The position numbers and the translations under genes are program-made. DNA of 64,000 bases from a candidate division WOR-3 bacterium (GTDB lineage Bacteria > Hydrothermota > Tepidihabitantia > SM23-42 > JAOAFX01), in NCBI GenBank assembly GCA_037444665.1, contig JBBILZ010000004.1, positions 11,746 to 75,745 of the forward strand, read 5' to 3'. Below the pieces are notes generated by a model. The model saw nothing but the letters and a program-made list of their open reading frames with translations, was not told the origin of the DNA and ran no database searches. How positions within the stretch are numbered: the stretch's first letter is position 1; each line of letters begins with the position of its first letter. This document shows positions 52,342 to 61,221 of the stretch, piece by piece.

Positions 52342-52962
52342 TTATTCTATAATAATCAGTTTATCTTTGCTATTTACTGTTTGCCCTTTTTGAACAAAAA
52401 TTTTCTTTATGACACCATCTCTCGGCGCCTTGAACTCATTCTGCATCTTCATTGCCTCAATAATCACCAAACCCTGCCCTTTCTTGACGGCGTCTCCTTC
52501 ACTTACCTCAACTTCAATCACCAAACCTGGCATCGGTGCAGTAATAATTGTCTCTTTTTTATGAACAGCATCTGCACCAGCCTTTAATACCCGGGCAATC
52601 TTTTCATCAACGACTTCAAAAGTATATTTATCACGGTCAACTGCAATCACCAAACCTGGCATCGGTGCAGTAATAATTGTCTCTTTTTTATGAACAGCAT
52701 CTGCACCAGCCTTTAATACCCGGGCAATCTTTTCATCAACGACTTCAAAAGTATATTCATCACGGTCAACTGCAATTTTATTATCCTTGCCAATGTGAAT
52801 CTGATATGGTCTATTATTGATTATCAGGGTCAGTGTTTCTTTATCAATGTCTACTACCTCCACCTGAATATTTTTACCATTCAAGGAAACCACATAACTA
52901 TTCCCTGATTTCTCAATATCGCACTTAAATTCCTTATCATCAATTTTCACAATATACGCCAT
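52342..52962 (-). CDS. Biotin carboxyl carrier protein (biotinyl domain EAMKM) with an internal 43-aa tandem duplication
   Basis: The C-terminus reads ...IEAMKMQNEFKAP. The segment DRD(E/K)YTFEVVDEKIARVLKAGADAVHKKETIITAPMPGLVI(A/E)V occurs twice. Confidence 0.75.
   Translation of the reverse strand: MAYIVKIDDKEFKCDIEKSGNSYVVSLNGKNIQVEVVDIDKETLTLIINNRPYQIHIGKDNKIAVDRDEYTFEVVDEKIARVLKAGADAVHKKETIITAPMPGLVIAVDRDKYTFEVVDEKIARVLKAGADAVHKKETIITAPMPGLVIEVEVSEGDAVKKGQGLVIIEAMKMQNEFKAPRDGVIKKIFVQKGQTVNSKDKLIIIE
52517..52774. repeat. Two copies of a 129-bp in-frame tandem direct repeat inside the BCCP gene
   Basis: The copies are near-identical, with 2-3 mismatches. Confidence 0.7.
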
Positions 52963-53310
52963 ATTCTCCCCTGTTGATTAATGACTTTTTCCAAGGATTG
53001 CCTCAAGTTTGACACTTTTTAAACCCTTTAGTATTCTTTTTAGTATTATCTCATCACGGTGCATAGACGCCCTTTCTTATTCTCCGTAAAAGAAATCGTC
53101 TGGGCCAGGATTTTGGCTTTAATAGATTCCTGAGCATCAAATGTAGATCATGGGGTGGGATGTCAGGAAATCTTTTAGCGAGTTTTTTTTGGTATTTTAA
53201 CAGAGGCTCAAAGAATCTTTTCTCGGCTAATTTCATAGCATTATTATATCTATGCAATCAATGTAGTCAAGTTCCCGATTTTCGCCAAAAATAGTATGAA
53301 TAATCGGATT

Positions 53311-53373
53311 TAAAACTTTCTCAACACCCTGCCAAAGATATTTCGCATAACGTCTTGCGGATAAAAGAAGTTG
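53311..53373. repeat. About 60-bp direct repeat, family B, copy 1 (second copy at 53937..54000)
   Basis: Both copies share atttaaaactttct(c/a)a... and tatttc(g/a)cataacgt(ct/at)tgcgga. Confidence 0.5.
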
Positions 53374-53441
53374 CCAAAGGCAATTTGGAGAAATCTTTGA
53401 TTTCCCTTTTATCCGCTGTTATATGAAGTGGCGTTGTTGAT

Positions 53442-53810
53442 TCATTTAGTTTCTCCCTTGTTCGCTTTTCTCAAATCCTCTAAAGTACCTCGTCTAACTG
53501 TATCGTGACAATTTGCACACAGCACTACCTTAATTTTTTTCTCGGGATCTGCATGATGGACTTGAAGAACAAACGGTCTACTATCACCACAAACAATACA
53601 TCTACCCGGTGGCGCCTTTTCTTTTAATGCCTTTAAAAATTCCACTTTTTCAGGTTCCCACTGTTTATTTTTCACTTTTGCAGCGACTTTTCTAGCACCT
53701 TTCTTACGCTTTCTTGTATACGCAGCTTTTATTCCCGGGCCTTTACCTCTCATTGTTTCCCATGCCTTTTTCGCTGGGCTTTTTTCTTCATTTTGGCCAA
53801 TTTTTATCAT
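53442..53810 (-). CDS. Small HNH endonuclease with a lysine-rich N-terminus
   Basis: It carries CIVCGDSRPFVLQVHHADPEKK...CANCHDTV, i.e. Cys4 plus the HH of an HNH His-Me finger. Confidence 0.6.
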   Translation of the reverse strand: MIKIGQNEEKSPAKKAWETMRGKGPGIKAAYTRKRKKGARKVAAKVKNKQWEPEKVEFLKALKEKAPPGRCIVCGDSRPFVLQVHHADPEKKIKVVLCANCHDTVRRGTLEDLRKANKGETK

Positions 53811-53858
53811 TTATTTCCTCCTTTTGTTAAAATGAAATCATTATCATACCGGCAGATT

Positions 53859-53930
53859 CTTTTCCAATTCTTATCCCCTTCCTAACCTGCACTACCTCAA
53901 ACATAATTTTATTATATCAACAATCTAAAA
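53859..53930. repeat. About 75-bp direct repeat, family A, copy 1. It is the promoter and leader of the HNH gene. The second copy lies at 59026..59098 upstream of the DNA MTase gene.
   Basis: The shared sequence is cttttccaattcttatccccttcctaacctgcactacctcaaacataattttattatatcaacaa. It is near-identical at both loci. Confidence 0.6.
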
Positions 53931-53936
53931 GAATCA

Positions 53937-54000
53937 AGCATTACTATATTTAAAACTTTCTAAAAACCCACCCGAAGTTATTTCACATAACGTATGCGGA
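53937..54000. repeat. About 60-bp direct repeat, family B, copy 2
   Basis: See 53311..53373. Confidence 0.5.
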
Positions 54001-54146
54001 CATACGAAGTACGAGGTGTAGCCGAGTATTTGGGCGGAGCAAAGTGTAGCCATATGGCCGCTGTTAAGTGAGTGTGATAGCATTGAGCTAAGAAAGTTGG
54101 CAAAAGTCGCAAAGGTTGTCTCTCTATATTTTTGTTTAAATGAATG

Positions 54147-55328
54147 TCAGCATCCACCGGGATTCCTGTAGATATCATCGTGCTCTCCAATTCTAAGCAA
54201 TTCCCATTGTCCGTTAAGAGGTCGCATGGCTAGTCTATACCTTCTATCTATTCTGATAGTGAATACTGTGTCGCATCCCTTAATCTTCTCAAAATTCAAC
54301 CCTGTATGATGTACACTATATTCAAGCATCTGCAAGGCCTTTTCTAATTTAGGCCTTATTTGCGGTATCTTTTGGATGCCCTTCTCAAATGTGGGTGATT
54401 TAATAATCTCAGAGCGTTCAATTGACGTAAGAAATCGTATTACGTATTGAGGAATGCTGATGGTTTGTACAATATATATAGGTACATCTCCAAAGAGTAC
54501 ATCCTGACAACGACAATCGAACAAAGACTCCAATGGTACTAAACTTCTACGTCCACTTCTCCCATTACTGATAGATGTGCCTAATTCACGTCTACCTCTC
54601 GAAAAATTCCTTCCCAGATACTGGTCAAATGCTGAGTAGCCATTAGGTTGATTTCTCATAAAACCTCTGAGCTGGCGACGAACATCTTTTCCTTGAAACC
54701 TATTATAAGCAAAAGCATTGGCAAGTGCTTCTTCAATGGGTTCATCTGCGTTACGAGGATTCAGATATACATTCTTGACATAGTCGGTATAGTAAGGCGT
54801 TCGAAAGTCTGTACCAACTTCAAGAACTGAAGCCGCAATATCCGTTATAAAATGGAAAAACTCATGAAGAAACAACAATCGGAATCCTTGTTGGAGTTGA
54901 TCCAGCATATTAAAGGAACGACCATAGCGTGATGTTTGTCCTACGCCTCTGAAAACATTTTGAGCAAGATAATAGATACCTTTATCAAGAATATATATCC
55001 CCCAACGATTTGAGGGATGCCAGTGAAAAGAACGATACCATGCTAAAACGTCAATACCTTCTCTAATAACTTTTCCTTCAATGTCTTGAACATTGATGTT
55101 GGGTATCTCCTCAAGATCACCGTTTGGAATCAAGATATAGTCTCCTATATTAGAAAATCTTCTTGGTGTTTCTTCCCAGTCATTCTTCCACGATGGGGAA
55201 TAGTTTGGTTCGGATCGTGTAATTCTGTCTCCATTCTCACGTTCTCTGCGATGGACATGATGCTCTGGTGGGAGTTCGTTGACCAATTGGTGCTCTTCCA
55301 ACAAGCAGATTATCTCACTTACGTTCAT
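54147..55328 (-). CDS. Hypothetical 393-aa protein with an HExxH motif and a C-terminal RelE/ParE-like toxin-fold segment
   Basis: It carries LFLHEFFHF. The C-terminus reads DTVFTIRIDRRYRLAMRPLNGQWELLRIGEHDDIY, resembling the RelE/ParE consensus. Its GC content is higher than in the surroundings. Confidence 0.35.
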   Translation of the reverse strand: MNVSEIICLLEEHQLVNELPPEHHVHRRERENGDRITRSEPNYSPSWKNDWEETPRRFSNIGDYILIPNGDLEEIPNINVQDIEGKVIREGIDVLAWYRSFHWHPSNRWGIYILDKGIYYLAQNVFRGVGQTSRYGRSFNMLDQLQQGFRLLFLHEFFHFITDIAASVLEVGTDFRTPYYTDYVKNVYLNPRNADEPIEEALANAFAYNRFQGKDVRRQLRGFMRNQPNGYSAFDQYLGRNFSRGRRELGTSISNGRSGRRSLVPLESLFDCRCQDVLFGDVPIYIVQTISIPQYVIRFLTSIERSEIIKSPTFEKGIQKIPQIRPKLEKALQMLEYSVHHTGLNFEKIKGCDTVFTIRIDRRYRLAMRPLNGQWELLRIGEHDDIYRNPGGC

Positions 55329-55339
55329 TTCTTACACCC

Positions 55340-55550
55340 CTTATTTTTTTAAACCTTTACCCCGATTTCACTTAACGGTCGCGGATATCTGAAGTTCCGA
55401 GCAGGCGCGCGTAAGCGTGCAAGTGAGGAATTTGGACGAACAATTGCAACGAAGTGAACCAGATATTCGCGTGTTAGGCGAGGGTGAGCCGAAGTAGAAA
55501 GTGTAACGACCCCGAACGACCGAAAGGAGCGATTCTTTTTGCTTGGCAGT
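55340..55550 (-). other. GC-rich (about 55%) ~210-nt leader/intergenic region with long-range complementarity. It is a candidate structured RNA.
   Basis: Bases gcggatatctga (55381-92) are complementary to cagatattcgcg (55460-71). The segment ccgaacgacc is repeated. The overlapping 73-aa ORF is arginine-rich and implausible. Confidence 0.2.
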
Positions 55551-55554
55551 GATT

Positions 55555-56181
55555 CTAAATTCTTTGGCATATTTCTATTAACCTTTTAATTTTTTGTTGA
55601 AGATCTTTAAGATCTTTGGTTTTCTTTGGATACCACTCGGCATTGTTGGCACCGGATGGATGTGGTAAATATATCCTATCTATAGAAATACTTTTGTTTT
55701 CTATTATCCACTTCTCGACATCTTTACCCAAACAAATTATAGCTTTTATCTGTTTTTGCATTTTGATAATTTCTTCTTTCAACCATTTATCTGCACATTT
55801 TTTTGTAAATTTATTTTTTTCATCTGTTGGACATTTATGAAAATGCGTCCAATATGTAACTTTAAATATTTTGAACAAATCGTCCGTATCTATCTCTATA
55901 TTTTTTCTTTTACAGAATTTTGTAATTTTTAAAATCAACGAAAAAGGAATTGCAGCAGAAAACAAAATGCGACGCATTTCATCGGGTTTATACCTTGCGG
56001 CATAATTATATATGGAAACAAAGTCAATAGTTGGATCTCTTGAGATTAATAAAATCTTTGTCCTATACCTATAAGGAGGAGGAATTAGAATGATAGGTAA
56101 ATTGTTTTTCTCTTTAAAAGGGCAATCTTCCGGGCATTTCTCTCTTGCTATTCTTATATATTTCTTTTTCTTTATAGTCAT
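55555..56181 (-). CDS. Uracil-DNA glycosylase superfamily-like protein
   Basis: It carries ILLISRDPT (motif-1-like), later ICLGKDVEKW, and LPHPSG (HPS motif-2-like). Spacing between them is compatible with the UDG fold. Confidence 0.4.
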   Translation of the reverse strand: MTIKKKKYIRIAREKCPEDCPFKEKNNLPIILIPPPYRYRTKILLISRDPTIDFVSIYNYAARYKPDEMRRILFSAAIPFSLILKITKFCKRKNIEIDTDDLFKIFKVTYWTHFHKCPTDEKNKFTKKCADKWLKEEIIKMQKQIKAIICLGKDVEKWIIENKSISIDRIYLPHPSGANNAEWYPKKTKDLKDLQQKIKRLIEICQRI

Positions 56182-56339
56182 AATATCATTTTCCTTAACC
56201 AAGTAAAATGTCGCTTAACGTTTTGCGACTATCCAAAGCTCCGCCGAAGGCGGAATTTGGGTAAACACCATACACCACGAACCTTTTATGCTGTGTTATA
56301 TGCCGTTGGTCGCCGTTTGCCATCGGGAAAATTCTCCTA

Positions 56340-57569
56340 TTATAAAGATTTAATAACATCCTTACAGGATAAAAATTGAATTATATCCGCAACATAATCT
56401 CTTATATTGTAATCCTCACCTGACGATTTAATGATTATTTCTGCAGGAATGGGTCTTATTTCTAACAGATTCTTATCGTAATCTTTTATTTTTTGGATGA
56501 TGCTATCCGTAACGTCTTCCAATATTTTATTATTTCTACTTAATTGAAATTTTTTGACTTCCGATAAAATTTCATTATTTTTCAAAATTGAGATTACATA
56601 ATTGTTTAAGTTCTTATTTTTCTTAAAATTTTGATCCAATACCGCTCGTTCACTCATTGTAATTATCTGCCCCAGCCACAAATCATCGTATAACATCTCT
56701 TCCAATTGTTTCTTAAAATACGCAATATTGTGCTTTTGCTCGCCTACAAAAAGGCTTTTAATAACTTCATTTCCATAAACAGCGACAATATTTACCTTTA
56801 TTCCATCAATTATAAATTCTATAAGAAATGCCTTTTCAGGTTGCTTTTTTTCATCAACATTATGTTTAATATTTTTATCTTTCAGGGTTTTGATTATGTC
56901 GTTTTTGCCTCTCAATAAACCATTATAGCAGAGTCCCCATTCTTCATCTTTTTGCGTTGTGGCAGGCTCTCCTTGAATATCAAACAAGATCCCTCCAATG
57001 AGAAAAATATTTCTTATACCGGCATTCTTAACGCAATTTCTAAAAGATCGGTCCCCAATGATCAACTTTGTGAATTTATTAAATTTTTCCATTAATTCAA
57101 CCCTTCCAGCAGTACAACCAGAATAAACTTTCATTTTCAACTCACAAAAGGCAAGGTTATCTTTGCTTTTATTAACGATGTCAAATTTTTGTTTTGTTAG
57201 TTCAGACTCTTCCAATTTGCTGGTTTGTCCCAACCACTGAGGAAGTTTCATTAAGACAAATTCAAACTCCATCTTTTCTGATGTTCCTAATTCCTCTAAT
57301 AGTTTGGCAACAAGACTTCCTCTTCCCGCCTGACTATGTTGATAATAAGATGTTATTGTTAACAGAGACTCATAGAAACTATACAAGTTGTCACTTATGA
57401 GTGATGCCTGAGATAATCCATGGAAGATCTCATCAAAAATATTAAAAATTGATTCTAAATCAATAGTCCTTTTAAACATTTCTTGGACTCTTTTCAAGTA
57501 CATTCTTTTGAGCCCGGCTTCTATTTCGTTTTTTGGTTCTGTGCTGATGAGTAATTTTCTAAGTTGCAT
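56340..57569 (-). CDS. Candidate type II restriction endonuclease (409 aa, no detectable family) downstream of the DNA methyltransferase
   Basis: It sits immediately 3' of the MTase on the same strand. It has a possible PD-(D/E)xK-like D...ELK segment (KDNLAFCELKMK). Confidence 0.3.
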   Translation of the reverse strand: MQLRKLLISTEPKNEIEAGLKRMYLKRVQEMFKRTIDLESIFNIFDEIFHGLSQASLISDNLYSFYESLLTITSYYQHSQAGRGSLVAKLLEELGTSEKMEFEFVLMKLPQWLGQTSKLEESELTKQKFDIVNKSKDNLAFCELKMKVYSGCTAGRVELMEKFNKFTKLIIGDRSFRNCVKNAGIRNIFLIGGILFDIQGEPATTQKDEEWGLCYNGLLRGKNDIIKTLKDKNIKHNVDEKKQPEKAFLIEFIIDGIKVNIVAVYGNEVIKSLFVGEQKHNIAYFKKQLEEMLYDDLWLGQIITMSERAVLDQNFKKNKNLNNYVISILKNNEILSEVKKFQLSRNNKILEDVTDSIIQKIKDYDKNLLEIRPIPAEIIIKSSGEDYNIRDYVADIIQFLSCKDVIKSL

Positions 57570-57581
57570 AATTTACACTCT

Positions 57582-58913
57582 CTATGGTTTATGACAAATT
57601 ATTACACTTTCTCCCCTTATTGCTCTATTACGAGCACCTAATAGTGGATTAAATATTAATTTTTTAAATTTAAATCCAACTTCCTCACAGAATTTTTTAG
57701 TTGTCATAGTTGTTGGAATTTTCTTACCGTTAACTGTGCTATCTCCAATTATTATTGCTAACTTACCACCGGGTTTTAATGCCCAGAAAATATTTTTTAT
57801 GGATTCCTTTAAATCCTCATAATACATAGCAACTTTGGGCGGTAATCCGCTGTGGTTACTTTTTACCTTTCTATCATTTTTCATCCCCAAATATTTTGAT
57901 TCAATTTTTTTCATATCTGTACCGAGATAATCATAGGCAATTTTATCTTTTCCAACATAATCTATGGAAAAATAATAAGGCGGACTTGTAATACAGGCAT
58001 CAAATTTTTCTTTCATCCCAGTCATATTTTTCAGTTCAAGTATGTCTCCTTCTATAATGTGAGCAGGTTTAAATTCAAGTCCATATTTATCTTTTATCTC
58101 CATTGTCTTTTTATAGCAGTTTTTAATATAATTTAATTTTTCAATAAAAAGCCCCTCCTTACCTTTTCTGTTATATCTTGAAGTCCTTACAAAAGCATCA
58201 ACCGTATCGAAATATACTGCCAACATTAATTTATGTATCACTGAATCAGGATGTTGCCATTTTTTATTTTCTATTGCTTCTAAAATATCTTGTAATTCCT
58301 TCGAGGTAAAACTTAATTTTTTTTCATCAATAAAAAGTAAATCGTTTTTCAACTCAGATAAAACGATTCCCATCGGAGTAACATCTATGCCAACACTTTT
58401 AATTCCCATAAGTGAAGCCTCATGCGTGGCAGTTCCAGAACCATTAAAAGGATCGAGAAGTAGTGAATTATGATTTAATCTAAAAGCATTAATTAAAGTT
58501 CTTACAACTCTTGGATAAAATTTTCCTTTATATGGATAAAGATTATGGAAAGCGTAGGCGTTAGTGTCGCCAAACTTATCCACAAAATCAGTATAAAGTG
58601 TTGTTTTTCCTCTAACTTTTTCAAGATGGGCAACTCGTAACCTTATAAATTCTTCATTACCTTTAAGGTTAACTACTCTATTAACAGGGTCAATTGTATA
58701 TTCATCCGTTAATCCTTGTAACTCCAAATCCAAAAACTCTAAATCTGCCAATGTTTGCATCCAAAAGCCAAATATGGTATCTCCTTTAGGAAGAATATAA
58801 TTTGCAAATTCCTTAGCATAAGCCTCCATTATCTCTTCGTAAGATGGAAATTCGTATGTACCAAACATCGTTGTTTGTTTTGTCTGTTTTTGTGGCAAGA
58901 TTTTTTCAGCCAT
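57582..58913 (-). CDS. DNA methyltransferase (N6-adenine/N4-cytosine amino-MTase; motif I before motif IV)
   Basis: It carries LLLDPFNGSGTATHEA (FxGxG) followed by ...ITSPPYY (SPPY). Confidence 0.7.
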   Translation of the reverse strand: MAEKILPQKQTKQTTMFGTYEFPSYEEIMEAYAKEFANYILPKGDTIFGFWMQTLADLEFLDLELQGLTDEYTIDPVNRVVNLKGNEEFIRLRVAHLEKVRGKTTLYTDFVDKFGDTNAYAFHNLYPYKGKFYPRVVRTLINAFRLNHNSLLLDPFNGSGTATHEASLMGIKSVGIDVTPMGIVLSELKNDLLFIDEKKLSFTSKELQDILEAIENKKWQHPDSVIHKLMLAVYFDTVDAFVRTSRYNRKGKEGLFIEKLNYIKNCYKKTMEIKDKYGLEFKPAHIIEGDILELKNMTGMKEKFDACITSPPYYFSIDYVGKDKIAYDYLGTDMKKIESKYLGMKNDRKVKSNHSGLPPKVAMYYEDLKESIKNIFWALKPGGKLAIIIGDSTVNGKKIPTTMTTKKFCEEVGFKFKKLIFNPLLGARNRAIRGESVIICHKP

Positions 58914-59025
58914 ATTCCTTTATCTCCTTTATATCCGAAGTTGATTACGGATATACATCCTTCTGGCTGAAGTGCCAGATTCTATTCTGTTTTGAATCTC
59001 TTTTATCCATTACCGCTCCCCGAGT

Positions 59026-59098
59026 CTTTTCCAATTCTTATCCCCTTCCTAACCTGCACTACCTCAAACATAATTTTATTATATCAACAAACTAAAAA
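59026..59098. repeat. About 75-bp direct repeat, family A, copy 2 (promoter region of the MTase gene)
   Basis: See 53859..53930. Confidence 0.6.
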
Positions 59099-59133
59099 AA
59101 GTCAAGCATCACAGGGGTAGGGCGTTATGAAAT

Positions 59134-60636
59134 CTATGTCTTTCTCAACATTGATTGCCTTGAGGCAAGTTTCCAGGGGTTCATCCCTGACTGTATCTTG
59201 TCTGATGATTTTGCTACAACCTTTTTTTCCTGCAGAATCTGGCTAATGATTGCTGCGGCTGCGGCAATCTCATAGTTCTCTTTTTTATATTCTATTTTAC
59301 CCAGAATTCTATCAATAAATGTTGTATCATAATCACCCGCAATAAAATTCTGATTATCCATTACCATCTTATGGAATGGGATGGATGTCTTTATACCCCT
59401 TATCACATATTCTTTTAACGCCCGTCTCATTCTTTCAATTGCTTCTTTCCTTGTCGGCGCCCAGACCAGTAACTTGGCAATCAATGGATCGTAGTAAATT
59501 GGCACTTCAAATCCGCGGTATACGCCACTATCCAGTCGCACGCCAATTCCACCAGGTTCAATGAGTTCGGTTATCACACCCATTGAAGGGGCAAAATTAT
59601 TCTCCGGCTCTTCAGCAGTTATACGACATTCAATTGCTGAGCCATTGATCTTAATATCCTCCTGCCTTAATGACAATTTTTCACCTGAAGCAATCTTAAA
59701 CTGCTCTTTGACAATATCAATGCCAGTGATAAGTTCTGTCACTGGATGTTCAACCTGCAACCGGGTATTCATCTCCAGAAAATAAAAATTGCGCTCTTTA
59801 TCAACCATAAATTCAACAGTTCCGGCATTATTATAACCAGACACCTGCACTGCCTTTTTTGCTGCCTCACCCATCCTTTCTCTTAATTCCGGAGTCATAA
59901 TTGCTGAAGGTGATTCTTCAATAAGTTTTTGATGACGTCGCTGGATTGAGCATTCCCTTTCGCCGAGATGAACAACATTACCATAATTATCCGCAAGGAT
60001 CTGAAATTCTATATGCCTGGGCTGGTCAAGAAACTTCTCTATAAAAATCGTGGGATTACCGAATGCGGATTGTGCCTCACCCATTGCCTGTTTTATCGCT
60101 GTTCCCAATTCTTTCTTATCCCTTACGACCCGCATTCCCTTACCACCGCCACCGCCTGCTGCCTTAATCAATACAGGCAGACCAATCTTCTCAATTATCT
60201 TCAGTGCCTCTTCTTCGTTTTTAACTGCACCTTCGCTTCCAGGAATTACTGGCACACCTGCCTTCACCATCGTTCTCTTTGAGGCAATCTTATCACCTAA
60301 TAGATTGATCGCCTTTGAATTTGGACCGATAAAAATAATTCCATTATCTTCGCATGCCTTTGCAAAAAACTCATTCTCTGCGAGAAATCCATAACCAGGA
60401 TGGATTGCCTCTGCCCCGCTCTTTTTTGCAATCTCAATTATCTTTTCTATTTTCAAATAACTCTCTGTGGCAGGTGGAGGTCCGAGATAATATACCTCAT
60501 CGGCATAACGGGTATGAAGAGCAGTTCTGTCCGCATCAGAATAGACCGTGACTGCCTTTATACCCATTTCTTTGCAGGCGCGGATTACCCGCACTGCAAT
60601 TTCACCACGGTTGGCAATTACAATTTTTTTGAACAT
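59134..60636 (-). CDS. accC: Biotin carboxylase (acetyl-/propionyl-CoA carboxylase or pyruvate carboxylase subunit A type)
   Basis: It starts MFKKIVIANRGEIAVRVIRACKEMGIK and carries an ATP-grasp domain plus a biotin carboxylase C-terminal domain. Confidence 0.85.
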   Translation of the reverse strand: MFKKIVIANRGEIAVRVIRACKEMGIKAVTVYSDADRTALHTRYADEVYYLGPPPATESYLKIEKIIEIAKKSGAEAIHPGYGFLAENEFFAKACEDNGIIFIGPNSKAINLLGDKIASKRTMVKAGVPVIPGSEGAVKNEEEALKIIEKIGLPVLIKAAGGGGGKGMRVVRDKKELGTAIKQAMGEAQSAFGNPTIFIEKFLDQPRHIEFQILADNYGNVVHLGERECSIQRRHQKLIEESPSAIMTPELRERMGEAAKKAVQVSGYNNAGTVEFMVDKERNFYFLEMNTRLQVEHPVTELITGIDIVKEQFKIASGEKLSLRQEDIKINGSAIECRITAEEPENNFAPSMGVITELIEPGGIGVRLDSGVYRGFEVPIYYDPLIAKLLVWAPTRKEAIERMRRALKEYVIRGIKTSIPFHKMVMDNQNFIAGDYDTTFIDRILGKIEYKKENYEIAAAAAIISQILQEKKVVAKSSDKIQSGMNPWKLASRQSMLRKT

Positions 60637-61073
60637 CTGCGCCTCTTTATTTCTAAAAGAACCTTTAAATCTTCTCTGTCTTTAGGTCTTCTTACTGCCT
60701 TTTTCATTTTGATCAGGTCATCAAGACTGGCAAAAAATACTTCAACTTTTCCGATTTTATCAACAACCTTATTTCTCCATACCTCATCAAATCTAACGCC
60801 GGCAACAAATGGATGGATATCAATTTCAATCAAATACTGTCTAATAAGAATCTTTTTTGTAAGAAGGTCACCAATGGTAATATCTGAAACATCATAACCA
60901 AATTTTTTAAGCGCAGTTAAACAGCGTCTGGCATTCGTTTTATTCGGCGCAATGAAAATATCGGTATCCATTGTCGCCCTTGAATAACCATGTACAGGAA
61001 ATGCAGTCGCACCAATAATTACAAACCGAACCCTATTTTCTCTTAATAATCTCAAAAGGTTTTCTATGTCCAT
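60618..61073 (-). CDS. Minimal nucleotidyltransferase-fold protein (second copy, paralogous to 45270..45743)
   Basis: It carries VRFVIIGATAFPVHGYSRATMDTDIFI. Confidence 0.4.
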   Translation of the reverse strand: MDIENLLRLLRENRVRFVIIGATAFPVHGYSRATMDTDIFIAPNKTNARRCLTALKKFGYDVSDITIGDLLTKKILIRQYLIEIDIHPFVAGVRFDEVWRNKVVDKIGKVEVFFASLDDLIKMKKAVRRPKDREDLKVLLEIKRRRCSKKL

Positions 61074-61221
61074 TTTTCAACAATATCTCCTTAATCATAT
61101 TTGATTTCTCAAACATCATTTTGAATCGTTCCTGGGTTGTAAGCGATAATTGATAGTCCAGTTCAAAGTTCAATTCTTTTTTACAATTATGCTGCTTCAG
61201 TTTCAGGATTTTACGATTCAT
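61033..61221 (-). CDS. Small hypothetical protein (62 aa), possible antitoxin-like partner
   Basis: It overlaps the NTase gene start. There is no family assignment. Confidence 0.2.
   Translation of the reverse strand: MNRKILKLKQHNCKKELNFELDYQLSLTTQERFKMMFEKSNMIKEILLKNGHRKPFEIIKRK

Follow-up and report, generated by a model that had tools for sequence, protein, structure and literature searches.

A divergent UDG-superfamily protein with a putative Fe-S cluster is encoded on its own integron-type cassette in a WOR-3-like bacterium

Base excision has only recently come to be recognised as a form of defence, with Brig1 in 2024 and Dag, Brig2 and Brig3 in 2025-26, and to our knowledge all characterised examples come from Proteobacteria, Actinobacteria or soil clones. 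Brig1, published in 2024, is an alpha-glucosyl-hmC DNA glycosylase that acts in anti-T-even defence (PMC11078745). Brig2 is described as an integron-encoded UDG-like protein of Vibrionaceae, and the same account reports that only one of seven UDG-like candidates from integrons conferred protection against the phages used and that one such protein defends against thymidine-hypermodified phages (Getz et al. 2025, bioRxiv 10.1101/2025.10.29.685425). Integron cassettes, including those of CALIN, each join a single ORF to an imperfect, attC-like hairpin bearing the boxes RYYYAAC...GTTRRRY; their sites are co-oriented with the ORFs, the cassettes are shuffled between arrays, and defence genes and toxin-like genes abound in the cargo. 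We know of no integron-like array, or cargo of one, that has been characterised in candidate phylum WOR-3.

Two established families of the UDG superfamily are relevant to the protein described here. In family 4 (UDGa; Thermus thermophilus TTHA0718, PDB 1UI0; Sulfolobus tokodaii, 4ZBY), which is encoded by a core repair gene, the cysteines of an N-terminal C-x2-3-C and of a following KC...C-x-D/N-K-W-L bind a [4Fe-4S] cluster, motif A is GE(A/G)PG, with Gly or Ala where family 1 UNG has the water-activating Asp, and motif B is HP(S/A), which supplies the leaving-group His. Family 1 UNG has no Fe-S cluster; its motif A is GQDPY, with the water-activating Asp (D64/D145) directly before the Pro, and its motif B is HPSPLS. 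The motif-A doublet, EG in family 4 and QD in family 1, tells the two families apart, and in the T. thermophilus (Tth) family 4 enzyme N80 binds N3/O4 of uracil and H155 stabilises the leaving group, while a QD doublet is functional in the family 4 scaffold (PMC5387724).

The window analysed here, a 64-kb stretch of DNA from an uncultured WOR-3-like bacterium, carries the gene of a UDG-superfamily glycosylase-like protein (the UDG-like protein) on the minus strand (Table 1). Its maximal ORF spans 55555-56202, opens with a TTG at 56202 and encodes 215 aa. Translation almost certainly starts at the ATG at 56181 and yields 208 aa that begin MTIKKK, because AAGGA stands before this ATG, the database protein P0001 matches, and the N-termini of all homologues agree with the 208-aa start. 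Residues are numbered here on the 215-aa form, in which CPEDC lies at 23, SRDPT at 54-58, YWTHFHKC at 117, KKC at 134-136 and HPSG at 181. The GC content of the gene is 29%, against 38% for the window.

Table 1. Features of the cassette array and its surroundings (positions in the window)
Feature	Positions	Strand	Remarks
Promoter-like element	59022..59100	-	TTGACT-16-TATAAT with TG; upstream of the MTase
443-aa DNA methyltransferase (MTase)	57582..58913	-	Pfam N6_N4_Mtase 9.8e-12
409-aa candidate type II restriction endonuclease, PD-(D/E)XK type	56340..57569	-	Invariant D130...E143-x-K145
attC-like site a	56213..56302	-	R' GTTAAGC; closes the R-M cassette
Whole UDG cassette	55376..56218	-	~843 bp, bounded by attC-like sites
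UDG-superfamily glycosylase-like gene	55555..56181	-	208 aa from ATG 56181
attC-like site b, of the UDG cassette	55370..55479	-	R'' GCCTAAC, R' GTTAAGT
Neighbouring cassette, 393-aa protein	54147..55328	-	Weak ParE-like C-terminal domain
attC-like site c, 3' of the 393-aa ORF	53985..54069	-	R'' ACTTAAC, R' GTTATGT
Neighbouring cassette, 122-aa HNH-endonuclease-like protein	53442..53810	-	phrog_2255 E=1.6e-9
attC-like site d, 3' of the 122-aa HNH-like ORF	53345..53425	-	Perfect arms

The resemblance to the UDG superfamily, first proposed in an earlier note from the motif positions RDPT and HPSG of the 215-aa ORF, is borne out. Each motif quoted is present, and Pfam PF03167 matches the protein at 26.2 bits (E=9.7e-6), where the curated cut-off is 24.3; the same model matches 45 of the 56 family members. 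With the AlphaFold (AF2) model, moderate in quality (pLDDT 76.6, pTM 0.75), a Foldseek comparison against the PDB places 47 of the 50 best matches in the UDG superfamily (SMUG1, vaccinia D4, UNG, TDG), with probabilities of ~0.9-1.0 and modest TM-scores to known UDGs (0.35-0.42), and the majority of the model's best matches in the BFVD viral-protein library are also UDG-like. The earlier concern that structure prediction might reveal a non-UDG fold is thus answered by matches that UDG-superfamily structures dominate. The best PDB profile match of the family is family 4 UDG, which hhalign aligns with the family profile over 140 columns at 91.6% probability and E=8.4e-7 (T. thermophilus enzyme). 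1UI0 is reached by profiles only, a single-sequence search of the PDB sequences with the UDG-like protein returning nothing relevant; family 1 UNG gives no sequence match in the PDB search and appears through fold-level matches only (vaccinia D4, BdiUng). No model of PADLOC, NCBIfam or PHROGs matches the protein. Together with the profile matches, the predicted structure indicates a genuine, divergent member of the UDG superfamily with the alpha/beta UDG fold.

The cysteines that the earlier note had regarded as extra turn out rather to be four residues, C23, C27, C124 and C136, that are invariant in all 56 aligned family sequences and that coincide, in the alignment, with the positions of the family 4 Fe-S ligands. 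In the hhalign alignment with Tth UDGa, the CxxC, KC and C of the family fall on the family 4 cysteines, and these positions would bind a putative [4Fe-4S] cluster. In the same alignment SRDPT pairs with GEGPG, YWTH with YITN and HPS with HPA. The fold, the four-cysteine layout and, by alignment, the leaving-group His of motif B (H181, in HPS) are thus those of family 4, whereas motif A is not: GE(A/G)PG is absent, the R of SRDPT stands opposite E41 and its D opposite G42, and the EG doublet has become RD. The column of the uracil-reading N80 holds His120, and identity over the aligned region is ~19%. The protein shares with family 1 an Asp directly before the motif-A Pro and a motif B that starts with HPS, but it lacks the Gln, has T58 in place of the Tyr after DP and carries the cysteine set that UNG does not have. 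By its family-1-like position, D56 of SRDPT is a candidate for the water-activating Asp. The Ser, Asp and Pro of motif A, as well as H120, H181 and S183, are each at least 90% conserved among the 56 sequences, and loss of the catalytic residues, the other objection foreseen for a UDG assignment, is not what we observe, since the candidate water-activating D56 and the leaving-group H181 are conserved family-wide. These sequence features lead us to consider the protein a previously undescribed, putatively Fe-S-binding branch of the UDG superfamily, cassette-borne in this bacterium.

The UDG-like gene is a separate, horizontally mobile integron-type cassette, the sites of which are attC-like by consensus and by covariation. 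With the consensus R''(RYYYAAC)-L''...L'-R'(GTTRRRY), in imperfect inverted repeats of 55-150 nt lying 3' of an ORF, we find four sites, all in one orientation and each 3' of an ORF, and none elsewhere in the 64 kb; two are exact in both boxes, and in the other two each box has a single mismatch. The UDG cassette begins within the R' box of site a, at its TT, and extends to the G in the R' box of its own site. Its leader (TTAAGCGACATTTTACTTGG...) is conserved and is followed by the ORF, by a spacer of ~75 nt that is also conserved, and by site b, the arms of which are GCGAATATCTG (L'') and CAGATATCCGC (L'). The L'' and L' arms of site d, GCGGATAAAAG and CTTTTATCCGC, pair perfectly and the DNA fold of this site reaches -17.5 kcal/mol (z = -4.9); taken singly, sites b and c give minimum-free-energy folds no better than those of shuffles. 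The attC-like structure is convincing because of covariation across ten sites, not because of the single-site folds of b and c: in 82% of cells the R''/R' and L''/L' positions pair, compared with 22-46% in shifted controls, seven pairs have changed on both sides, and the covariation score is reached by none of 500 shuffles. The same leader (TTAGGCGACATTTT...), ORF and attC are found together in four other metagenomic arrays carrying the UDG cassette (L003, L006, L009 and L047), where the flanking ORFs are unrelated.

In its build of single ORFs with hairpin sites, in the co-orientation of sites and ORFs, in the shuffling of cassettes between arrays and in its cargo, the array of the window resembles integron cassettes and CALIN. 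Besides the R-M genes, the cargo includes the 393-aa protein, the ParE-like match of which falls below the cut-off (PF24732, E=3.9e-4), and the 122-aa protein, for which the Pfam HNH match is weak. Unlike integrons, the array has no identified intI, attI or Pc within the 64-kb window, the six-frame translations of which contain no tyrosine-recombinase signature of an integron integrase, and it is placed inside a metabolic gene cluster, in a variable slot among the genes for propionyl-CoA carboxylase and methylmalonyl-CoA mutase, with housekeeping genes on both sides. Given that no integrase is found in the window, the array is at best a CALIN-type cluster and not a complete integron. It is likely driven by the promoter-like element upstream of the MTase gene, a second copy of which, 96% identical, lies at 53855-53933; the close relative L125 also has the conserved element, downstream of accC. 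A 25-nt inverted repeat around the whole island (I1) was dropped, other chance pairs being just as good. At 28 related loci, mostly archaeal, a strict RYYYAAC...GTTRRRY scan gave no candidate beside the UDG-like gene, and attC-like flanks are not demonstrable for the archaeal members, the relaxed scanner being too noisy at 537 matches per Mb.

The two genes preceding the UDG cassette had been proposed to form a restriction-modification (R-M) pair, and the evidence agrees. The MTase matches PADLOC MTase_II (4e-30) and carries DPFNGSGT (motif I) at 154 and SPPYY (motif IV) at 310; a motif of the SPPY form points to N4-cytosine specificity. The 409-aa protein has no family match in the profile searches. 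It has 243 homologues (72-88% identity, across phyla), it is always preceded by an N6_N4 MTase, and D130, E143 and K145 are invariant. A nuclease fold is only suggested for it, because the model is poor (pLDDT 62) and its matches, which include PD-(D/E)XK nucleases (McrC, EcoO109I and cap-snatching nucleases), are non-significant. Together the MTase and the 409-aa protein form a type II R-M module that is mobile in its own right and is found in other genomes without the UDG-like gene. Two statements of the earlier note about this neighbourhood need correction. The UDG-like gene is not upstream of the pair but downstream (3') of it, because the minus strand carries all three, with the MTase first, followed by the 409-aa protein. 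Nor is the glycosylase embedded in the R-M system: a 158-nt spacer with a structured attC-like site parts it from the pair, it has an attC-like site of its own, and its cassette occurs in four arrays that lack the pair, just as the pair occurs without the cassette. The gene only adjoins the R-M cassette, and a functional tie between them is unlikely.

In Archaea and Bacteria alike the family is rare and patchily distributed. The 1.84 billion representatives include 206 clusters of it, and its signature pattern matches 25 of about 185,000 species genomes; some MAGs carry two copies. A viral origin was considered and rejected, only two weak partial matches being found in 2.9 million viral contigs. 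No conserved neighbour of the gene was found across 30 loci. When 29 loci were examined gene by gene, about one-third, as a raw share, had defence genes at most two genes away, and the remaining two-thirds or so had no defence gene within two ORFs. The defence neighbours comprise BrxL; SIR2 with an NsnB/AriA-like ATPase; IetA/IetS; a Mokosh-like helicase; a type IIG R-M system (L003); a PLD nuclease with a C5-MTase (L001); PglZ with a DUF1156 MTase; McrBC-like proteins; and DRT proteins.

Brig1 and the UDG-like protein have in common the UDG-superfamily fold, a defence-island setting beside BREX, Pgl and R-M genes, seen for Brig1 and for the UDG-like family, and a substitution at the uracil-reading Asn position, by Glu in Brig1, a single-gene defence effector, and by His in the UDG-like protein. 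Homology between the UDG-like family and Brig1 was nevertheless rejected, as hhalign gives a probability of 0.7% over 10 aligned columns; the Brig1 sequence compared, of 261 aa with GLNPG and the Y121/E147 pocket, is that of the supplement of the paper (PMC11078745). Unlike the UDG-like protein, Brig1 has GLNPG as motif A and no four-cysteine set. Its homologues are mainly actinobacterial, whereas the UDG-like family is found mostly in Methanomicrobia, other archaea, Zixibacteria and WOR-3-like bacteria. No named Brig entry is among the best PDB fold matches of the UDG-like model. The integron UDG-like proteins of Vibrionaceae resemble it by description, as they too are said to combine a UDG fold with integron cassettes and A/T-rich, horizontally acquired DNA. 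Unlike that of Brig2, the gene studied here comes from an uncultured WOR-3-like bacterium, and its array has no integrase within 64 kb. The UDG-like protein has the Fe-S cysteine set, a feature that the account of Brig2 available to us does not report (bioRxiv 10.1101/2025.10.29.685425).

The UDG-like protein is most likely a stand-alone base-excising enzyme of defence or repair and not part of a restriction system, because it is borne on its own integron-type cassette, which merely adjoins an independently mobile R-M cassette. Between these two functions, a Brig-like anti-phage role is plausible, and we rate it as nearly an even chance, because of the cassette-array context and of the defence genes close by in about one-third of loci, and because the published integron UDG-like defence enzymes provide a precedent. 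Such an enzyme would flip a pyrimidine out of the DNA and hydrolyse its N-glycosidic bond, with Asp56 activating the water and His181 stabilising the leaving group; the altered reader of the Watson-Crick face, His120, may confer preference for a base other than plain uracil. It would work alone, as Brig1 and Brig2 do, on non-canonical bases of invading phage or plasmid DNA, and the resulting abasic sites would block replication of that DNA. The gene would be read through from the upstream promoter-like element along with the R-M cassette while remaining functionally independent of it. A bolder proposal is that the protein founds a UDG "family 7", in which a family 4 Fe-S scaffold is combined with a family-1-type Asp and a His base-reader, that its substrate is a hypermodified pyrimidine in the DNA of phages or archaeal viruses, and that it is the first Fe-S anti-viral glycosylase, moving from one domain to the other, Bacteria and Archaea, on an integron-type cassette. 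This we offer as speculation, and taken whole it is rather unlikely.

The main rival to the defence reading is accessory repair, in which an Fe-S UDG clears host DNA of uracil or of other deaminated or oxidised bases, as a cassette-borne "spare" with no anti-phage role. The nearest solved relative, Tth UDGa, is a true repair UDG, the leaving-group His and motif-A Asp would be compatible with efficient uracil excision, and the QD doublet works on a family 4 scaffold (PMC5387724). The neighbours at some loci also point this way, with photolyase, ligase and a Pol-beta-like thumb domain at L008, exonuclease VII at L012 and the ribosomal S2 and EF-Ts genes (rpsB/tsf-type) at others, and two Zixibacteria MAGs have several neighbours of the gene in common. 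Moreover, six of the seven integron UDG-like proteins are reported without phage protection (bioRxiv 10.1101/2025.10.29.685425). The uracil N3/O4-reading Asn of families 1 and 4 is, however, a conserved His here, and the rare, patchy distribution, the low GC content, the mobility of the gene as a cassette and the recurrent defence neighbours are not what accessory repair would lead one to expect. We consider it somewhat unlikely, though a serious contender.

A partnership with the adjacent R-M pair, either as Vsr-like deamination repair at the methylated cytosine or as the arm of an R.PabI-style "restriction glycosylase", would fit the position of the gene on the same strand, 3' of the MTase and nuclease with no predicted terminator between, the cytosine-N4 MTase suggested by the SPPY motif, and the R-M genes beside other family members (L003 and L001). 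Glycosylases tied to R-M systems have also been described, for example the R.PabI family (PMC10273834, PMC4357717). Yet an attC-like site lies between the gene and the pair, each is found elsewhere without the other, and no neighbour is conserved; the nearby R-M chemistries differ as well (m6A type IIG, m5C, putative m4C), which does not fit a deamination logic built on one MTase. Because the R-M association is not conserved, we rejected the Vsr-like and "restriction glycosylase" readings, and a partnership retains hardly any of our credence. The protein might instead be non-catalytic or suicidal, serving as a sensor of damage or modified bases or as a UdgX-like covalent binder. Its motif A is unlike that of every characterised family, a His-rich YWTHxHKC segment adjoins the pocket, and in UdgX a family-4-like Fe-S scaffold is described as having evolved covalent trapping of AP-DNA (PMC4787834, PMC10359453). 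Against this, the presumptive catalytic residues D56 and H181 are both conserved family-wide, the family alignment has no counterpart of the UdgX R-loop KRRIH, and a single-domain, partner-less architecture fits an enzyme better than a sensor in need of an effector; we judge such a role very unlikely.

Whatever the function of the UDG-like protein, the "R-M island" in which it was noticed is an attC-delimited cassette array, and genes co-located in such arrays are to be viewed as independent modules and not as operon partners. The RD doublet and putative His reader on a family 4 scaffold amount to a natural experiment in UDG catalysis. The family is cassette-borne in an uncultured bacterium of the FCB group and recurs in methanogen defence islands, and a distinct Fe-S-bearing UDG family of this kind would broaden base-excision defence in its enzymology as well as in its host range.

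We found that the UDG-like protein is a UDG at the superfamily level, an assignment first made from sequence motifs in an earlier note and upheld by Pfam score, model fold matches and hhalign. It scores 26.2 bits against PF03167 (cut-off 24.3), which is also matched by 45 of its 56 relatives. The structure prediction proposed as a check on the assignment returned a UDG fold: 47 of the best 50 PDB matches of the AlphaFold2 model (ten input sequences; pLDDT 76.6, pTM 0.75) are UDG-superfamily structures. The PDB matches include Geobacter SMUG1, vaccinia D4, BdiUng, TDG and an M. acetivorans UDG, with probabilities of ~0.9-1.0 yet TM-scores of just 0.35-0.42, and the best viral-protein matches in BFVD are mostly UDG-like proteins or polymerase-fused UDG domains. 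The sole relevant solved relative found by the 56-sequence family profile is the T. thermophilus family-4 UDG (1UI0, E=0.0097), and hhalign aligned the family to it across 140 columns with a probability of 91.6% and E=8.4e-7. Residues 9-25 and 74-157 of the 1UI0 sequence aligned were confirmed by the family-profile match.

In the hhalign alignment, C23 and C27 (numbered on the 215-aa ORF) fall on the N-terminal CxxC of family 4, and C124 and C136 on the cysteines of its KC...C-x-DKWL segment. The four are invariant among the 56 family sequences and are not the "extra" cysteines they had been taken for; they correspond to the residues that ligate the [4Fe-4S] cluster in family 4, homology pointing to putative cluster binding. 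Motif A, SRDPT, is aligned to GEGPG, with R55 on E41 and D56 on G42, while H120 of YWTH is aligned to N80 of YITN and H181 of HPS to H155. In Tth UDGa, N80 contacts N3 and O4 of uracil through a bidentate pair of hydrogen bonds, H155 stabilizes the leaving uracilate, and the EG doublet of family 4 is QD in family 1, where the Asp is the water-activating residue of UNG (PMC5387724). Read with these roles, the alignment indicates that the leaving-group His is kept, an Asp at the family-1 catalytic position is gained and the uracil-specifying Asn has become His. The catalytic Asp/His pair, whose loss would have spoken against the UDG reading, is conserved across the family. The enzyme is predicted to be catalytically competent, with plain uracil unlikely to be its sole or preferred substrate.

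All motifs originally quoted for the ORF are present in it: CPEDC at residue 23, SRDPT at 54, YWTHFHKC at 117, KKC at 134-136 and HPSG at 181. The gene very probably starts at ATG 56181, giving 208 aa; this codon has AAGGA in front and agrees with P0001, the matching database protein, and with the N-termini of all homologs. With this start and the minus-strand gene order, the gene lies downstream of the R-M pair and not upstream, as originally stated. The MTase, 409-aa and UDG-like genes have a GC content of 29-32%, versus 38% for the window.

Features of the cassette array and its surroundings (window coordinates unless a locus is named)
Feature	Coordinates	Strand	Remarks
MTase, 443 aa	58913-57582	-	ORF
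409-aa protein	57569-56340	-	ORF; starts 12 nt past MTase stop
UDG-like ORF, 215 aa	56202-55555	-	third of three consecutive minus-strand ORFs
attC-like site a	56302-56213	-	shared spacer repeat
attC-like site b	55479-55370	-	shared spacer repeat
attC-like site c	54069-53985	-	shared spacer repeat
attC-like site d	53425-53345	-	shared spacer repeat
attC-like site, L047	4215-4283		nearly identical to site d
attC-delimited array	53345-59100	-	CALIN-like
Slot, accC to biotin-carrier gene	52963-59133		cassette array
Same slot, L124	11293-13138		mgtE
Same slot, L125	10466-11210		different MTase-like ORF
79-nt repeat, array head	59022-59100		upstream of MTase
79-nt repeat, second copy	53855-53933		between site c and HNH-like ORF
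Biotin-carrier ORF	52342-52962		contains the 129-bp duplication
129-bp tandem duplication	52508-52776		2.1 copies, 98% identical
151-aa/62-aa ORFs	60618-61221		overlapping; between carboxyltransferase and accC genes

The spacers after the 409-aa, UDG-like, 393-aa and 122-aa ORFs have in common a GC-richer repeat of 81-110 nt, in four copies and with no further copy in the rest of the 64 kb. Each is built like an integron attC site, with a RYYYAAC-type 5' box (GCCTAAC, ACTTAAC, ATATAAC), an inner arm (for example GCGGATAAAAG, GCGGCCATATG or GCGAATATCTG), a variable centre, a complementary inner arm and a GTTRRRY-type 3' box (GTTAAGC, GTTAAGT, GTTATGY). Across ten sites on five contigs, R''/R' and L''/L' pairing is found in 82% of cells, versus 22-46% with the partner slid 1-3 columns; both-sided changes occur in 7 of 19 pairs, and none of 500 shuffles reached the covariation score. 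A profile of the four window copies showed that the same element flanks the closest homologs of the UDG-like gene on independent metagenome contigs (L003-5, L006-7, L047). In the raw sequences and a four-way alignment the UDG cassette has a conserved order: it opens with the preceding site's 3' box, followed by (G)TTAGGCGACATTTTGCTTGG..., the ORF, a conserved spacer (GCCAAGCAAAA..CTTCGCTAC.ATCG) and its own attC-like site, beyond which similarity ends and the flanking ORFs are unrelated. Its neighbors change from one array to the next. In the window they are the R-M pair; L003 has a 370-aa unknown protein and a 1105-aa type IIG enzyme, L006 small unknown proteins, L009 a PglZ, DUF1156-MTase and DUF87-ATPase system, and L047 a 237-aa unknown protein. 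The UDG unit behaves as an integron gene cassette, and the array, since no integrase signature occurs within the window, is of the CALIN type. The near-identity of site d to a site on L047, an unrelated metagenome contig, means that several samples share a circulating attC type, which is what a single integron lineage would be expected to show.

The adjacent MTase has motif I (DPFNGSGT) ahead of motif IV (SPPYY) and strong type II MTase matches; the SPPY form, a sign of N4-cytosine specificity, suggests that it is a putative N4-cytosine enzyme. Family searches gave no assignment for the 409-aa protein. Its 243 relatives are 72-88% identical and occur in very different phyla, including archaea, and such identity over distant phyla indicates recent horizontal spread. 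Loci L040-L043 place relatives in Ratteibacteria, Kryptobacter, Hydrogenedentota, WOR-3, Micrarchaeaceae and Nitrososphaerota. At the loci examined, a ~445-aa N6_N4 MTase always precedes the 409-aa relatives and a UDG-like gene never follows them; the two genes are an unnamed R-M module that has spread very recently across phyla and domains. Three residues, D130, E143 and K145, do not vary and are placed on neighboring strands by a weak model of the 409-aa protein, whose best fold matches, though non-significant, include PD-(D/E)XK nucleases (McrC, EcoO109I, cap-snatching nucleases). Given the MTase pairing, the invariant residues and these nuclease matches, the original label of candidate REase is reasonable but falls short of proof.

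The UDG-like protein could be functionally linked to this pair, in Vsr-like repair or as an R.PabI-like restriction glycosylase. A promoter-like TTGACT-16-TATAAT with TG upstream heads the array, no terminator-like site separates the UDG-like gene from the R-M genes, and read-through co-transcription of the three is plausible. The link is nonetheless unlikely, because a recombination site separates the two modules and each is found without the other. The gene is not embedded in an R-M island, as the earlier note had it, and is instead an independently mobile cassette.

The attC-delimited array makes up the entire "island" from accC to the biotin-carrier gene, with R-M, UDG-like, 393-aa (weak ParE-like C-terminal domain) and 122-aa HNH-like cassettes; a 67-aa ORF is possibly another. 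The host is a WOR-3-like bacterium, its AccC being 85-86% identical to named WOR-3 proteins, and it has GGDEF and T9SS-tail proteins. Slot contents differ among close relatives (AccC 95% identical in L124 and 97% in L125), which makes the slot, within a propionyl-CoA carboxylase/methylmalonyl-CoA mutase gene cluster, a variable integration hotspot. Two direct repeats of 79 nt, 96% identical, carry the near-consensus TTGACT-16-TATAAT site; since the element recurs downstream of accC in L125, recombination at it may have brought in the 5.17-kb segment between the copies. Nearby, the 129-bp duplication repeats ~43 residues in frame (DRD.YTFEVVDEKIARVLKAGADAVHKKETIITAPMPGLVI) and could be recent or an assembly artifact, and a DUF2204/DUF6036 nucleotidyltransferase-like ORF of 151 aa and a 62-aa ORF, kept in L124 and L125, look like a small toxin-antitoxin-type pair within a metabolic operon.

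A word-indexed search found just nine relatives of the UDG-like protein; when 1.84 billion cluster representatives were searched exhaustively with a profile, 206 passed E<=1e-3 and 48 passed E<=1e-30. Scanning 185,579 species genomes for a signature pattern led to 25 confirmed loci, most of them in Methanoregula (two copies in some MAGs), Methanocella, Methanomicrobiaceae, Methanosarcinales, Bathyarchaeota, Thermococci and Thorarchaeota, plus Zixibacteria. In two of the Methanoregula MAGs a pair of diverged copies lies on separate contigs (L030/L034, L033/L035). Two Zixibacteria MAGs (L019/L021) have several neighbors in common, with the gene on opposite sides of one; this suggests partly vertical inheritance with local rearrangement. 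Viral contigs gave two matches, both weak and partial. PADLOC, NCBIfam and PHROG hold no model for the protein, and hhalign showed no detectable sequence relationship to Brig1 (sequence from the paper's supplement), with a probability of 0.7%. Brig1 likewise has a substituted uracil-reader position, Glu147 for the His120 here. By motif definitions the protein lies outside UDG families 1-6, UdgX and the Brig1 family, and it looks like a new family mixing family-4 and family-1 features. The concept itself is not new, since both defense by glycosylases and UDG-like proteins borne on integrons are in the literature; we know of no earlier account of the family as a cassette in a WOR-3-like genome or of its spread over archaeal defense islands.

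The UDG-like protein would be a stand-alone base-excision enzyme, its likeliest role in the array being to attack non-canonical bases of invading DNA. Brig1 is a precedent for such a defense role, as is Brig2, UDG-like and carried by an integron (bioRxiv 10.1101/2025.10.29.685425). The main rival is that it is an accessory repair UDG. Across 30 loci no gene qualifies as a conserved neighbor, and many neighbors have housekeeping or repair functions (photolyase, ligase, exonuclease VII, ribosomal S2, EF-Ts, GatB). Defense genes lie within two ORFs at about 10-11 of the 29 loci of a first set: PLD nuclease with helicase and C5-MTase, a type IIG R-M enzyme, PglZ with DUF1156 MTase, BrxL, PDC-S01, a BrxP-like PAPS reductase, SIR2 with an NsnB/AriA-like ATPase, a Mokosh-like helicase, and IetA with IetS. 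A second set of 33 non-redundant metagenome loci, scanned as a pool, added McrBC-like, AspBHI-like and type IIG enzymes, MTases, SoFic, a DRT-associated DUF1848 protein, DrmMI, PglX, a HEPN protein and Vsr. The enrichment of defense neighbors around the family is suggestive, and its defense neighborhoods are recurrent, not obligatory.
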